Shown here: piece by piece, positions 21,487 to 25,340 of the stretch
How positions within the stretch are numbered: position 1 is the stretch's first letter
Layout: each line of letters starts with the position of its first letter
Source of the DNA: Gammaproteobacteria bacterium
Lineage (GTDB): Bacteria > Pseudomonadota > Gammaproteobacteria > Ga0077536
DNA length: 64,000 bases
Direction of reading: 5' to 3'
NCBI GenBank assembly: GCA_030830685.1
Contig: JAURMM010000016.1
Coordinates: forward strand, 11,723 to 75,722
Program-made: the position numbers and the translations under genes
The notes under the pieces: generated by a model
What the model saw: only the letters and a program-made list of their open reading frames with translations
The model's database searches: none
Told to the model about the DNA's origin: nothing

Positions 21487-23451
21487 GTGCATCCAGCATC
21501 CCTCTACTCTACGCTATCCTTCGCAGATCGGCCGGAAATGTATAAGGCGCTGGCGCTGATATTGTTGGGCCTTCTGGTCTACTTACCCGGACTGCCCGGC
21601 GGCTTCATCTTCGACGACTATCACAACATCGTAGATAACCCTGCGATGCGGCCGGCTGAGTGGAACTCAGAGGCGTTGGTACGTGCAGCACTGTCCAGTC
21701 CTTCCGGGCCACTGCGTCGGCCGGTGTCCAGTCTCAGCTTTCTGCTTAATTACGAAGTTTTTGGCGCTGGCGCCTTTTCCTTCAAACTGTTCAACCTGAT
21801 CCTTCACTTGGCCAATGCATGCCTGCTGTACCTGCTTGGCCGGGCACTGCTCACTCGCCTCACCGCGATGACGAGGGCAAGCTGCGATTCGGTAGCGCTG
21901 CTTGCGGCGGCGATGTGGGTTGTTCACCCGCTGAATCTGACGTCCGTCCTTTACGTTGTGCAACGGATGAACAGCCTTGCGGCCTTCTTCTGCCTGATCT
22001 CCATGTTTGCATATATGAAGATTCGCGAACGCGCCGTTCTCCCCGGAGCGACAGTGCCCTGGGCATTGTGGGGTGTCCTGATTTCAAGCGGTGTGCTGGC
22101 TTTGGGAAGCAAGGAAAACGCAGTTCTACTGCCCCTCGCGCTGTTGTTAATCGAGACGACCTGTTTTCGGTTTCGGTCGGCTCCGAAGCTCAAGTGGGGG
22201 TACTGGGTAGTTCTGCTGCTCGGTGTGGCAGGTGTCATGTTCCTTGTGCTGGAACGTGAAATTCTCACCCGCGGTTACGCCCACCGACCCTTTACAGCCT
22301 GGGAACGTGGTGCGACAGAGCTCAGGGTGCTTGCTTATTATCTCAAGCAAATTCTCTTGCCTGATCCGTTTTCCATGGCCCTCCTGCACGCTGACTTCAC
22401 AGTCTCAAGAGGCCTGTTCAGCCCACCCACAACATTTCTGGCGCTCTTGCTTCATGCGGCACTACTCGGATTTGCTTGTTGGTATCGCAGCCGATACCGG
22501 CTTTTCTGCTTCTCCGTCGCCTGGTTCTATCTTTGGCACCTGCTGGAATCCACCATTTTTCCGCTGGAACTTCTTTATGAGCACAGGAACTACCTGGCTA
22601 CTACAGGGCCGCTGCTGCTGATAAGCACACTGTTACTCCACATTCCGCGGGTTACTCCTCGCGTTCTGGTATTGACCGGTATCGGCGTGGTTCTCATTTT
22701 GGGCTCCATGACGTTCTATCGCGCTTGGCGCTGGAGTGACCCGGTCACGCTTGCCCTGCTTGAGCGGCAACATAATCCAAAGTCGGAGCGTGCTGCTTAT
22801 GAGTACGCGCGTGTACTTTTGAATGCATACACCGTCAACCGGCGAGCCGACTTGCTGCGTGAGGCACGCGAAGTGATGCGACCGCTAGCCAGCTCTGACA
22901 GTCCCGCCCCCTTGGTCCTGGTGGGATTGATAAACTCCTACCTGGTGGCAAACGAGCCCGTACCCCAACGTTGGGTCAAGCGTTTTGCCGCTCACCTAGA
23001 CCAAGGCGACCCGGACTCGGGAGATATCAATGCGCTGGAAATGCTGGTGACTTGCCAAACCCCGCCCGGCCCATGCCTGCCAGCCCCCGATGTCATACTT
23101 CAGCCGATCGGAGCAATACTTGATAACGAGGCAGCGTCGCCTGCGACCAAAGCCTTGGTGCTGGAAAAACTGGCTATCTATTATGCAAATAGCTTGGGAG
23201 ATCTGCCCGCCGCGAGGCGCGCGACAGAGGGCGCATGTTCGTACATGCCAGAGGAGGCGCTTTACCTCCTGAGGCTTGCGGAAATACAGCTGGCATCCGG
23301 CCAGACAGATCTGGCGCGCGTTACATTCAGCAATGCCGATGCACTCGCGGCCCGCAGTAGCGGGCGGCTGAGGCCATTATGGTTGGCCAGGCGTGCAACT
23401 CTTTTACGGAAGTTCGTGAGCGCCATGCAGAAAGAATCCGTTCGCTCGTGA
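21487..23451 (+). CDS. Polytopic GT-C-like glycosyltransferase with C-terminal TPR-like domain (TMTC/PMT/TfpW-like), paralog 1
   Basis: 654 aa. About 400-aa multi-TM N-terminus with a first-loop 'FIFDDYHNIVDNPAM' (DD motif resembling the TMTC/PMT/ArnT loop-1 motif) and 'ESTIFPLELLYEHRNYL'. C-terminal roughly 250 aa is helical-repeat (TPR-like). Start may be 21538 (MYKALALILLGLL). Confidence 0.62.
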   Translation: MHPASLYSTLSFADRPEMYKALALILLGLLVYLPGLPGGFIFDDYHNIVDNPAMRPAEWNSEALVRAALSSPSGPLRRPVSSLSFLLNYEVFGAGAFSFKLFNLILHLANACLLYLLGRALLTRLTAMTRASCDSVALLAAAMWVVHPLNLTSVLYVVQRMNSLAAFFCLISMFAYMKIRERAVLPGATVPWALWGVLISSGVLALGSKENAVLLPLALLLIETTCFRFRSAPKLKWGYWVVLLLGVAGVMFLVLEREILTRGYAHRPFTAWERGATELRVLAYYLKQILLPDPFSMALLHADFTVSRGLFSPPTTFLALLLHAALLGFACWYRSRYRLFCFSVAWFYLWHLLESTIFPLELLYEHRNYLATTGPLLLISTLLLHIPRVTPRVLVLTGIGVVLILGSMTFYRAWRWSDPVTLALLERQHNPKSERAAYEYARVLLNAYTVNRRADLLREAREVMRPLASSDSPAPLVLVGLINSYLVANEPVPQRWVKRFAAHLDQGDPDSGDINALEMLVTCQTPPGPCLPAPDVILQPIGAILDNEAASPATKALVLEKLAIYYANSLGDLPAARRATEGACSYMPEEALYLLRLAEIQLASGQTDLARVTFSNADALAARSSGRLRPLWLARRATLLRKFVSAMQKESVRS

Positions 23452-25340
23452 CACATCGCTGCCTGACGAGCAAGATCCGCCTGCAGGCTCTGGTCATCTT
23501 GGCGCTTGCGGTAACCGCTATCGTGACCGTTTATGTATACCAACCTGGTCTCAGCGGGCCACTTCTTTTCGATGATTTGCATACCCTGCTACCTCTCCTG
23601 AGGCCCGAGTTCCAGCATTCGAATTGGAGCTCTTCGCTGTCGAGCTCCACTGGGATCCTAGGTCGGCCCGTCGCGATGGCGAGTTTCCTGCTAAATGCTG
23701 CGTTGTCGGACAACCCCCAGCTGGCATGGAAAACAACGAATCTCGCAATCCACCTTCTGATTGCAGTCCTCCTCTACCAGGTTACTTCCCGTTTGCTCTC
23801 GGCCGGGTTGGCAGCTTCGCCTGCGCGGGTCGCTCTTTTGAGTTGCTGCGTCACTGCGCTGTGGGCTCTTCACCCCGTTCATGTATCCACTGTTCTCTAT
23901 ACGGTTCAGCGCATGGCCCAGCTCTCGGCTTTCTTTGTGCTGGCTGGAGTATTCGCTTATCTGTGGGGTCGTCAGCGCGAGGCGTGTGATGCAGTCAAGC
24001 GACTGGCCCTCGCGTCACCATTTGTCTTCTTCACCCCCCTTGCAGTGCTCAGCAAAGAAAACGGGGCACTGTTACCTCTCTTCATCCTTCTGCTGGAAAT
24101 TGTTCTACCTACTCCCAGAGGCGATCCCTGTTTGCGCCAGATTCGCACACAGTTGCAGGTGGGTGTCTGGTGCCCCGCCATTTTGGCGCTGGCGTATCTG
24201 CTTATGGGAGGTTGGGAGCGAATTCTCGCGGGCTACTCCGGCCGTGACTTTACGCTTTCCGGACGACTGATGACCGAAGCCAGAGTTATCTGGCATTACC
24301 TTGGCATGATCGTGATTCCATCCCCGGGACGGCTGGGTTTTTTCCATGATGACCTGGCTGTCTCAAGAAGCCTTTCTGAGCCGGCGACCACGCTATGGTC
24401 GCTCTTGGGCCTTGTTGCGCTCGGGGTGCTTTGCCTCTTGGCGCGACGCAGAGCACCGGTGGTGACCTTCGGTCTTGCAATGTTCCTGTTGGGGCACGTG
24501 CTCGAATCGACCATCATTCCTTTGGAGCTCATGTTCGAGCACCGGAACTACCTGCCGTCTTGCGGACTCTTGATTGCGCTTGCAGGGTGCGCAGACTCCG
24601 TTCGGACAGGGCCTGCAAGTGTCTATGTGCTTCTCGGCGTAAGTGCGCTCATGGGGGCTTTTGCATACATGACCGCCATTGCGGCATACGCGTGGGCGTC
24701 GGAGGAAACCATGTATGCCCATTTCTATCAAGCACATCCCACATCACCCCATGCTGCTAGTCACTTTTCTCAAGTTCTCTCATCCCGAGGACATTACCAG
24801 GAGGCGCATGCGGTGCTGCAGCCGATAGGAGGCGCAGGTGCCGAAATTCATCGCTGGTACCTCATTTGCAGGGAGACTGGGATACTTGATGATTCCCGCA
24901 TTGAGACTGGCCTGATCGATCGGGAGAAAGTGCTGAAGTCCTATGTGGCTGTGGGGTTGGTCGAAGTGTCGAACCTGGCACTGGATGGAAAGTGCCAACT
25001 GTCTATGTCACTCCTCGGGGACGCGGTGGCCCGGGCTTCGAAAATGCCCGCGGCACAACGGCGTTGGCGGCATAACCTGATGTTTTACCTTGCACACTTG
25101 CGATGGATGAACGGTCAAAAGCCCGCGGCGCTAGGAGTTTTGGCGGACCTCGCTGAAAGAACGGCCGACGATCCCTTACCCTACTTCCTGATGGCGGAAT
25201 GGAAATCGGAGCTTGGCGATGCACAGGGCGCACGTGCTGCTTTTATCGCGGGCCAAGAAGCCAGCGCTCGTTCGGGAAGGGACTATTCTCGAACTGAAGA
25301 CGCAGTGAGATTGCTCCTCCAAAAATCGGCCCTTCCCTGA
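23379..25340 (+). CDS. Polytopic GT-C-like glycosyltransferase with C-terminal TPR-like domain, paralog 2
   Basis: 653 aa, collinear with paralog 1: 'YQPGLSGPLLFDDLHT', 'RPVAMASFLLN', 'HPVHVSTVLYTVQRMAQLSAFF', 'SKENGALLPL', 'ESTIIPLELMFEHRNYLP'. The first ATG overlaps paralog 1 by 72 nt; a non-ATG start just after 23451 (e.g. CTG at 23463) is possible. Confidence 0.58.
   Translation: MVGQACNSFTEVRERHAERIRSLVTHRCLTSKIRLQALVILALAVTAIVTVYVYQPGLSGPLLFDDLHTLLPLLRPEFQHSNWSSSLSSSTGILGRPVAMASFLLNAALSDNPQLAWKTTNLAIHLLIAVLLYQVTSRLLSAGLAASPARVALLSCCVTALWALHPVHVSTVLYTVQRMAQLSAFFVLAGVFAYLWGRQREACDAVKRLALASPFVFFTPLAVLSKENGALLPLFILLLEIVLPTPRGDPCLRQIRTQLQVGVWCPAILALAYLLMGGWERILAGYSGRDFTLSGRLMTEARVIWHYLGMIVIPSPGRLGFFHDDLAVSRSLSEPATTLWSLLGLVALGVLCLLARRRAPVVTFGLAMFLLGHVLESTIIPLELMFEHRNYLPSCGLLIALAGCADSVRTGPASVYVLLGVSALMGAFAYMTAIAAYAWASEETMYAHFYQAHPTSPHAASHFSQVLSSRGHYQEAHAVLQPIGGAGAEIHRWYLICRETGILDDSRIETGLIDREKVLKSYVAVGLVEVSNLALDGKCQLSMSLLGDAVARASKMPAAQRRWRHNLMFYLAHLRWMNGQKPAALGVLADLAERTADDPLPYFLMAEWKSELGDAQGARAAFIAGQEASARSGRDYSRTEDAVRLLLQKSALP

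Follow-up and report, generated by a model that had tools for sequence, protein, structure and literature searches.

The window, a 64-kb stretch of contig JAURMM010000016.1 from a Gammaproteobacteria bacterium of the Ga0077536 lineage, contains two tandem genes (gene 1 and gene 2) whose products are divergent paralogs, each combining a membrane domain of the GT-C glycosyltransferase fold with a C-terminal tetratricopeptide repeat (TPR) domain. Their sequences place them with the animal TMTC O-mannosyltransferases, and their genomic setting points to type IV pili, the major pilin gene pilA lying immediately upstream and a gene for a polyprenyl-phosphate glycosyltransferase of family GT2 immediately downstream. 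This decisive context went unnoticed in the initial annotation of the two genes, and the tight linkage of pilA, GT-C and GT2 turns a 'hypothetical TPR protein' into one with a specific and testable candidate function, O-glycosylation of pilin from a lipid-linked monosaccharide. It is probable, although well short of certain, that the locus is a pilin O-glycosylation cassette resembling that of TfpW in Pseudomonas aeruginosa, supplied with a hexose-type lipid donor and equipped with two specialised TMTC-type transferases.

AlphaFold2 models of the two proteins, built on alignments of 68–69 sequences (pLDDT 93.6 for gene 1 and 92.8 for gene 2, pTM 0.92), share one architecture, eleven membrane helices with long loops behind the first and seventh, followed by a repeat domain that is all-helical by DSSP. 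In both predicted structures the membrane domain adopts the GT-C fold, on which the initial annotation had staked its reading. The structural neighbours of the gene 2 model are Pmt2 (18.1), Pmt4 (17.7), STT3B (17.2), ALG12 (16.7), AftB (15.3) and ArnT (14.3), with TPR proteins coming next. The C-terminal part of the family profile resembles consensus TPR proteins (E=5e-31), TPR models of Pfam match 54 of 68 family members in their C-terminal portion, and a PDB search with the full-length profile returned TPR proteins only. Over the membrane domain no Pfam or NCBIfam model was found for either protein (E≤10) or for any of the 68 homologs, weak TPR matches being the only ones obtained, and other GT-C models of Pfam such as PMT_2 match none of the 68 members at E≤0.1; a PDB sequence search with this domain likewise gave nothing at E≤10, whether from the single proteins or from a membrane-domain profile. 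The conserved motifs all fall in loops 1, 3, 5, 7 and 9 (numbered from an N-terminus of one residue), which share their side of the membrane with the C-terminal TPR domain. The catalytic DD motif, which the same annotation had needed to be non-cytoplasmic, sits in loop 1 on this side, and the five short loops of the opposite side hold five Lys or Arg and no Asp or Glu, with further positive residues at the helix ends. Conserved cysteine pairs are found in the C-terminal domains too, C506/C513 for the gene 1 type and C474/C516 for the gene 2 type. Both are predicted to be inner-membrane proteins whose DD loop and TPR domain are periplasmic.

Animal TMTC1–4, protein O-mannosyltransferases acting on cadherins in the endoplasmic reticulum (CAZy family GT105), likewise comprise 11 transmembrane (TM) helices and a non-cytoplasmic TPR domain, and full-length prokaryotic homologs of theirs exist that have been described as uncharacterised (PMC7801869). 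When the TMTC1–4 N-terminal-domain alignment that accompanies Eisenhaber et al. 2021 (PMC7801869) as a supplement was compared by hhalign with an alignment of 20 membrane domains of the present family (A2), the two matched over 391 columns, the whole membrane domain, with a probability of 99.74% and E=4.1e-27, compared with 0.4% for a control in which the TMTC alignment was reversed. A hidden Markov model (HMM) derived from A2 scored 75–118 bits on 12 TMTCs, as against 2.9 on ArnT (5EZM) and −0.8 on Pmt1 (6P25), and hhalign of the family profile gave 9.8% for ArnT and 0.2% for Pmt1. At the level of single sequences, BLASTP aligned gene 1 with zebrafish TMTC3 (33% identity over 164 residues, E=9e-15) and gene 2 with human TMTC3 (E=2e-10). 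A likeness to TMTC had initially been noted, closest in loop 1 of gene 1, and an alignment against TMTC1–4, PMT and ArnT had been proposed; the likeness is borne out by these comparisons, in which only TMTC was matched. Judged by their sequences, both proteins are TMTC-type GT-C enzymes and not members of the ArnT or PMT families, to which their likeness is at the level of fold only.

Approximately 28 residues are invariant in the 68 sequences, both paralogs included, and are concentrated in those loops that make up the donor and metal sites of TMTC and ArnT. Among them are D26, R61-P62, H130-P131, Q142-R143, K192-E193, Y268 and P275, and H349-R350-N351-Y352; D27 and N34 in loop 1 and E348 in loop 5 of gene 1 are at least 90% conserved. 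The invariant residues correspond, partly in altered form, to the TMTC ligand-site motifs M1, M2, M3, M4 and M7, in a scheme that defines M1 as the DD, M2 as SHKSYRP..SFRLN, M4 as KE[T/Q]xxT, M5 as DW and M7 as ERxxY (PMC7801869). Specifically, the family has D26-D27 within FIFDDYHNIVDN where TMTC reads FV[FH]DD..AI..N; it retains R61-P62 and S-F-x-L-N of M2 without the S-H-K-S-Y, H130-P131...R143 of M3 with Asp changed to Asn or Thr, and K192-E193 of M4; and it presents M7 as E348-H-R350-N-Y352, with the Arg moved by one position. The elements shared with TMTC are F-x-F-D-D-x-x-x-I-x-x-N, R-P..S-F-x-L-N, H-P...R, K-E and E-x-R-x-Y-x-P-S-x-G. Directly after the DD the two paralogs part ways, as had been noticed for gene 2, and the divergence extends clade-wide, with a loop-1 consensus of GGFxFDDYxNIVxN for the gene 1 type and GPLLLDDxPxLxPLL for the gene 2 type. 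Every invariant active-site residue is kept in both subfamilies.

The arrangement of the locus recurs in many other species. When one genome per species was scanned, at least 598 stretches proved to encode relatives, and the best 80 of these, each from a different species, were compared by an unbiased clustering of all neighbouring ORFs (open reading frames). They belong to Xanthomonadales, Methylococcales, Ectothiorhodospiraceae, Burkholderiales, Nitrosomonadales and many unclassified Gammaproteobacteria. A pilin gene is found in 61 of the 80 loci; it invariably lies upstream, shares the strand of the GT-C gene in 68 of 69 cases and is separated by a median gap of 98 nt, and a GT2 gene in 53, downstream in 56 of 57 cases at a median gap of 43 nt. 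The regulators PilR and PilS are encoded upstream in 32 and 26 loci, respectively, and a GT4 gene directly follows the GT2 in 25, as it also does in L082, L083 and L085 outside this set. The cassette thus opens with pilA, continues with one to three GT-C genes and a GT2, and often ends in a GT4. Since the nearest solved relatives of the window's GT2 protein, ArnC (6e-15), the dolichyl phosphate mannose (Dol-P-Man) synthase DPMS (1e-9) and GtrB (5e-6), are all polyprenyl-phosphate glycosyltransferases, it is assigned the same activity; its NCBIfam matches, all below cut-off, are AglJ (4e-31), a Dol-P-hexose transferase (6e-20), PpgS (4e-17) and ArnC (8e-17). This conserved ArnC/DPM1/GtrB-like neighbour suggests that the GT-C donor would be a polyprenyl-phosphate-linked sugar. 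As for the acceptor, a C-terminal Ser of the kind used by TfpO was considered as a general rule and rejected, since Ser is the last residue of just 10 of the 68 associated pilins. More conserved Ser/Thr columns are found at mature positions 63, 71, 79, 88 and 90, in and after the alpha-beta loop, the part of the protein that carries the modifications of Neisseria and Pa5196 pilins.

Gene 1 and gene 2 correspond to two long ORFs of one strand (21487–23451 and 23379–25340 in the ORF list), and their products share 35% identity over 450 residues (BLASTP, E=5e-54). All the blocks by which the initial annotation had linked them (PGL.G..FDD.H, RPV..SFLLN, HP....VLY.VQRM..L.AFF, SKEN..LLPL and ESTI.PLEL..EHRNYL) appear in this alignment. 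The full-length collinearity also proposed there holds for architecture but not for sequence: the similarity is entirely N-terminal, ending near residue 470, and pairwise alignment of the C-terminal ~215–240 residues, the TPR domains, yielded nothing significant (best E=0.29). For gene 1 the most likely start is ATG 21538, the one used by NCBI protein P0001 and, independently, by the gene call of a Logan contig, and this start replaces the GTG at 21487 from which the gene had been drawn. For gene 2 it had been correctly observed that no in-frame ATG lies past the gene 1 stop, but the in-frame GTG at 23448, which shares four nucleotides (GTGA) with the gene 1 TGA stop, was overlooked among the alternatives. 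NCBI protein P0121 (630 aa, 100% coverage) and the Logan gene call both begin there. In the orthologous pairs of loci L002, L005, L009, L032, L037, L082 and L084 a candidate start of the second gene is found 1–14 nt before the stop of the first, and the cytoplasmic N-termini ahead of TM1, 10–20 residues long in orthologous second genes, fit the GTG start as well. GTG 23448 is the best start available; ATG 23379, with a GAGG 5 nt upstream, is less likely and would add 23 residues that have no counterpart in orthologs, and the also less likely CTG 23463 is made unnecessary by the GTG that NCBI and Logan use.

Family genes number one in 49 of the 80 loci, two in 29 and three in two. In a neighbour-joining tree of 110 family proteins the window's gene 1 clusters with the first genes of L002, L006, L037, L005 and L009, and its gene 2 with the second genes of these same loci and of L032; the gene 1-type and gene 2-type subtrees have an identical branching order and are mirror images of one another. 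A gene 1 type followed by a gene 2 type is encountered in ten other loci, seven of which are in the tree. Four loci on long contigs (L082–L085) were added to the set solely by their similarity to gene 2, and all show the order pilS-pilR-pilA, gene 1 type, gene 2 type, continued by GT2 in three and by GT4 in the fourth. The recurring pair and the mirrored subtrees thus identify an old duplication whose order has been kept fixed, in agreement with the age that the initial annotation had proposed. Independent duplications have occurred elsewhere, as sister copies (L070), as triplets, and as a divergent first copy in Xanthomonadales. The three tandem genes of L047 (1911–7989) and L060 (660–6792) represent a conserved ordered triplet, since genes at corresponding positions of the two loci group together. 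In seven Xanthomonadales-type loci (L052, L055, L056, L061, L072, L074 and L075, at ~2.1–8 kb of each locus) two tandem pilin genes are followed by two GT-C genes, the first of which belongs to a third and more divergent subfamily, hinting at one transferase per pilin.

Table. Coordinates of the cassette and its neighbours in the window
Feature	Position	Strand	Evidence and remarks
pilS, two-component regulator	17614-19332	+	ORF; order pilS-pilR-pilA also in related loci (tblastn)
pilR, two-component regulator	19340-20680	+	ORF; PilS/PilR Pfam domains in L082-L085
pilA, major type IVa pilin, presumed acceptor	20927..21370	+	147 aa; Pfam Pilin 2e-25, N_methyl 3e-10
pilA-gene 1 spacer	21371..21537	+	Two strong hairpins (~21403-21445, ~21480-21510); RNA fold -64.2 kcal/mol, z=-3.4 vs shuffles
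Gene 1, TMTC-like GT-C glycosyltransferase	21538..23451	+	637 aa; membrane domain residues 1-400 (21538-22737), TPR domain 401-637 (22738-23448)
Gene 1 loop-1 motif F-I-F-D26-D27-Y-H-N-I-V-D-N (putative catalytic DD)	21604..21639	+	Aligns with TMTC1 FVHDDVWAIVNN
Gene 1 loop-5 motif E348-H-R350-N-Y352	22579..22593	+	Aligns with TMTC motif M7 ERxxY
Gene 2, second TMTC-like GT-C glycosyltransferase	23448..25340	+	630 aa; membrane domain ~23448-24695, TPR domain ~24696-25337
Gene 2 D42-D43 (putative catalytic) in L-L-F-D-D-L-H-T-L-L-P-L-L	23571..23576	+	D42, D43 invariant in 69 sequences
GT2 polyprenyl-phosphate glycosyltransferase, presumed maker of the lipid-linked donor	25384..26262	-	292 aa, two C-terminal TM helices; Pfam Glycos_transf_2 1e-26
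GT4 glycosyltransferase, frequent fourth cassette member	26320..27549	-	409 aa; Pfam Glycos_transf_1 2e-37
Wzx-like Polysacc_synt flippase	27603-28877		
259-aa ORF between Wzx-like and methyltransferase genes	28874-29653		No Pfam match at E≤1e-4
Methyltransferase	29650-30396		
Second GT4	30409-31398		

The pilA ATG is preceded at 7 nt by AAGGAG, and the Logan gene call agrees on the length of the protein. A sigma-54-like −24/−12 element (GGGCACGCTATGTGC, 20817–20831) is located ~100 nt upstream of pilA, and TGACGT-containing repeats sit directly past the pilR stop (20672–20831 region), features that fit PilR/RpoN control; window-wide the sigma-54 pattern is not enriched, with 84 matches and 94 expected. 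The spacer that separates the end of pilA from gene 1 is 167 nt long, and its hairpins may limit how much transcription from pilA continues into gene 1, much like the terminator that follows pilA in P. aeruginosa pilin-accessory cassettes (PMC11841053), although no T-run lies behind them and a consensus terminator scan was empty there. The assembly genes pilB, pilC and pilD are found at 4.1–8.0 kb of the window. G+C content is 0.565–0.605 over the pilin and glycosylation block (20000–30000) as compared with 0.61–0.65 elsewhere in the window, which suggests a surface-antigen island subject to variation or horizontal exchange. The window contains no tRNA gene. A tblastn search of 72,556 plasmids found no match. 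In one complete genome (L084, 7861–10721) the cassette is followed by reverse transcriptase (RVT_1) and insertion sequence (IS)-type transposase genes, in keeping with the idea that mobile DNA favours the pilin region. Beside the gene 1/gene 2 pairs of L082, L083 and L085, too, GT4 and methyltransferase genes are found. Unrelated to the cassette, a PagL-type lipid A 3-O-deacylase gene occurs at 47044–47658 among ilvBNC, leuA and pssA.

Homology with TMTC, PMT and ArnT, together with the parallels to TfpW and to three-component periplasmic glycosylation systems, allows a mechanism for the cassette to be proposed. At the cytoplasmic face, GT2 would load undecaprenyl phosphate with a single sugar taken from a nucleotide sugar, and the lipid-linked sugar would then be flipped across the membrane, a step for which no dedicated flippase gene was found in the cassette. 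In the periplasm each GT-C protein would move the sugar onto Ser or Thr residues of PilA before the pilin joins the pilus, with the TPR domain docking or holding the pilin. The paralogs probably divide the work between them, because both keep the full set of catalytic residues but differ in the part of loop 1 behind the DD and, completely, in their TPR domains; they might serve different pilin sites, or one might add the first sugar and the other extend it. Gene 2 is probably coupled translationally to gene 1 through the GTGA overlap. Extrapolating from TfpW and TfpO of P. aeruginosa, the likely role of such a modification would be variation of the pilus surface or protection from pilus-specific phages.

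Several observations weigh against this reading. The assignment of pilin as the acceptor has gene order as its sole basis, and the GT2 gene of the window is on the strand opposite to the GT-C genes and is therefore not co-transcribed with them. The GT4, methyltransferase and Wzx-like flippase genes next to the cassette point to a more extensive glycan pathway, which tells against the proposal because a GT-C enzyme using a lipid-monophosphate monosaccharide would not obviously need them; these genes are the main reason for caution. Moreover, no ORF at 25.3–31.5 kb is a candidate for a GtrA-like flippase, nor did the 80 loci contain a conserved small neighbour of this kind. The comparison with TfpW (AAM52060.1) is drawn from its published description and not from sequence, and of the TfpW loop-4 motif YX6PFX7P only the YX6P half is present here, the invariant Y268-x6-P275 being followed by D-P-F in gene 1 or S-P-G in gene 2 without the P-F..P spacing. 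Nor is the likeness to TMTC complete. Motif M5 is missing from the family, in which the D-W aligns with G/A-L and a conserved H284-x-D286 appears instead 3–5 residues further on, and DUF1736, the Pfam model of the TMTC TM7–TM8 loop, matches none of the 68 members. Taken with the comparison of the other ligand-site motifs, this makes the family a distinct bacterial branch of the TMTC lineage.

The fixed pairing of the two genes admits other explanations. Wherever a gene 2 type was found (six of the 80 loci and four sampled independently), it came second, behind a gene 1 type, the two subtrees mirror each other, and stop/start overlaps of 1–14 nt suggest coupled, equimolar translation, so that the paralogs might constitute one enzyme, an obligate heterodimer like yeast Pmt1–Pmt2, and not two independent specificities. 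PMT-family GT-C enzymes are described as acting as dimers (PMC7759382), and TfpW interacts with itself in two-hybrid assays (bioRxiv 10.1101/2020.04.19.049825). Even so, an obligate heterodimer appears unlikely, since the 49 single-copy loci imply that the fold needs no paralogous partner, recent duplicates and triplets exist elsewhere (L070, L047, L060) and the full set of catalytic residues is found in both proteins. It is also conceivable, although we consider it quite unlikely, that the paralogs act sequentially on one glycan, one transferring the first sugar to pilin and the other carrying out its periplasmic extension or polymerisation, as has been proposed for TfpW as a single enzyme and for the mycobacterial Aft/Emb enzymes. 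The single adjacent GT2 donor synthase would then have to provide the same sugar twice, and the predominance of single-copy loci also speaks against it. What lends this notion some appeal is the proposal that TfpW both polymerises and transfers D-arabinofuranose (D-Araf) (bioRxiv 10.1101/2020.04.19.049825), together with the presence of AftB and AftD among the structural neighbours, the unlike loop 1 of the two subfamilies, and TPR sequences that are unrelated, as expected if one binds a protein and the other a glycan-bearing pilin.

Other alternatives dispense with the pilin as substrate or with catalysis itself. The target could be lipopolysaccharide or lipid A (as for ArnT), an envelope glycan, minor pilins or exported proteins, with linkage to pilA reflecting residence in a shared surface-antigen island. 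The GT4s, Wzx-like flippase and methyltransferase next door, the lower G+C over 20–30 kb, the place of ArnT among the structural neighbours and the convergent transcription of the window's GT2 and GT4 are all compatible with such a target. This is less probable again, given a pilin gene that lies upstream on the same strand in 61 of the 80 loci at a distance (median 98 nt) far tighter than co-residence in an island would entail, a pilin gene number that often tracks the GT-C number in Xanthomonadales, and the mere 2.9 bits that the family HMM awards ArnT. By far the least plausible proposition is that of non-catalytic pilus accessory factors, TPR scaffolds or chaperones like TfpY or PilF with a residual GT-C-like membrane domain: TPR domains are protein-interaction modules, and some pilin accessory proteins such as TfpY are not enzymes (PMC11841053), but a non-enzyme would hardly be expected to cluster its invariant residues in the donor- and metal-site loops or to retain a donor-synthesising GT2 as a conserved partner in 53 of 80 loci.

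The reading as a pilin O-glycosylation cassette can be extended, tentatively and with considerable doubt, to the proposal that the gene 1/gene 2 pair is a fixed two-enzyme module, whether a Pmt1–Pmt2-like heterodimer or an initiator and an extender, within a very large and unannotated bacterial TMTC branch that natively O-glycosylates type IV pilins. The membrane-domain profile retrieves 13,477 cluster representatives at E≤1e-30 and ~90,000 at E≤1e-3, and a full-text literature search found no paper linking TMTC to type IV pili. Were the proposal true, pilin cassettes would offer the first genetically tractable model for TMTC-type enzymes, and the cadherin O-mannosyltransferases of animals would seem to descend from bacterial enzymes glycosylating adhesion filaments. 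TMTC enzymes are tied to human brain malformation and hearing loss. Beyond providing a bacterial model for TMTC mechanism and acceptor recognition, the cassette is of relevance to pilus antigenic variation, to resistance against pilus-specific phages and to genome annotation, and the ordered divergent pair amounts to a natural experiment on how acceptor or step specificity is split among GT-C/TPR enzymes.

Viewed against known glycosylation systems, TMTC is the closest sequence family and TfpW of P. aeruginosa Pa5196/PA7, the D-arabinofuranosyltransferase of group IV pilin, the closest functional precedent. Like the family studied here, TMTC exists as several paralogs, presumed to differ in site specificity, and its acceptor is an adhesion protein, as the pilin would be for the present enzymes. 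The present proteins are bacterial and reside in the inner membrane facing the periplasm, share ~18% identity with TMTC at profile level, and would use an undecaprenyl-phosphate sugar in place of Dol-P-Man. Yeast Pmt1, Pmt2 and Pmt4 (PMT family, GT39) carry a MIR domain, which the family lacks, having a TPR domain instead. In GtrA/GtrB/GtrC-type systems (Mann and Whitfield; PMC11127046) a GT2 likewise charges polyprenyl phosphate and a GT-C enzyme transfers the sugar outside the cytoplasm, but these systems modify O-antigen and other polysaccharides with the aid of a GtrA-like flippase (PMC11127046), whereas the present cassette has a protein as its presumed acceptor, a GT-C enzyme that bears a TPR domain, and no flippase gene. 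The Wzy_C-family enzymes TfpO/PilO, PglL and TfpM also glycosylate pilin Ser/Thr in the periplasm, and some are likewise encoded beside the pilin gene; they transfer preassembled oligosaccharides from undecaprenyl diphosphate, however, and are unrelated in fold and family. Neither protein gave a Pfam or NCBIfam match to Wzy_C or O-antigen ligase models even at E≤10, and TfpO and TfpW are themselves described as unrelated and structurally distinct (PMC11841053). Cyanobacterial Ogt, a pilin-modifying TPR glycosyltransferase, was considered as a relative and ruled out, being a cytoplasmic GT41 enzyme with N-terminal TPRs.

TfpW, 646 residues long, has 11 TM helices, carries its DDX motif in the periplasm and ends in a TPR domain; its gene directly follows pilA, and pilin glycosylation depends on it (bioRxiv 10.1101/2020.04.19.049825). 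Its N-terminus is cytoplasmic, its DDX is essential, and it has been assigned to the GT-C type by modelling on ArnT; it glycosylates pilin and protects against pilus-specific phages (PMC11841053). Position right after pilA (as in 61 of the 80 related loci), size (637 and 630 as against 646 residues), the number of TM helices, the loop-1 DD and the periplasmic TPR domain are all common to TfpW and the two proteins of the window. The donors appear to be made differently, since polyprenyl-phosphate-D-Araf is produced for TfpW via DprE1/DprE2 and a transferase dependent on phosphoribosyl pyrophosphate, whereas a GtrB/ArnC/DPM1-like GT2 adjoins the present pair. No D-Araf pathway domains were found among the ORFs scanned, which cover most of the window, a weak test given that the PA7 genes are unlinked. 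In the TfpW system ArnE/F may replace a GtrA-like protein (bioRxiv 10.1101/2020.04.19.049825). Finally, TfpW is the product of a single gene, sometimes accompanied by tfpX, whereas the cassette described here employs two divergent paralogs in a fixed order.

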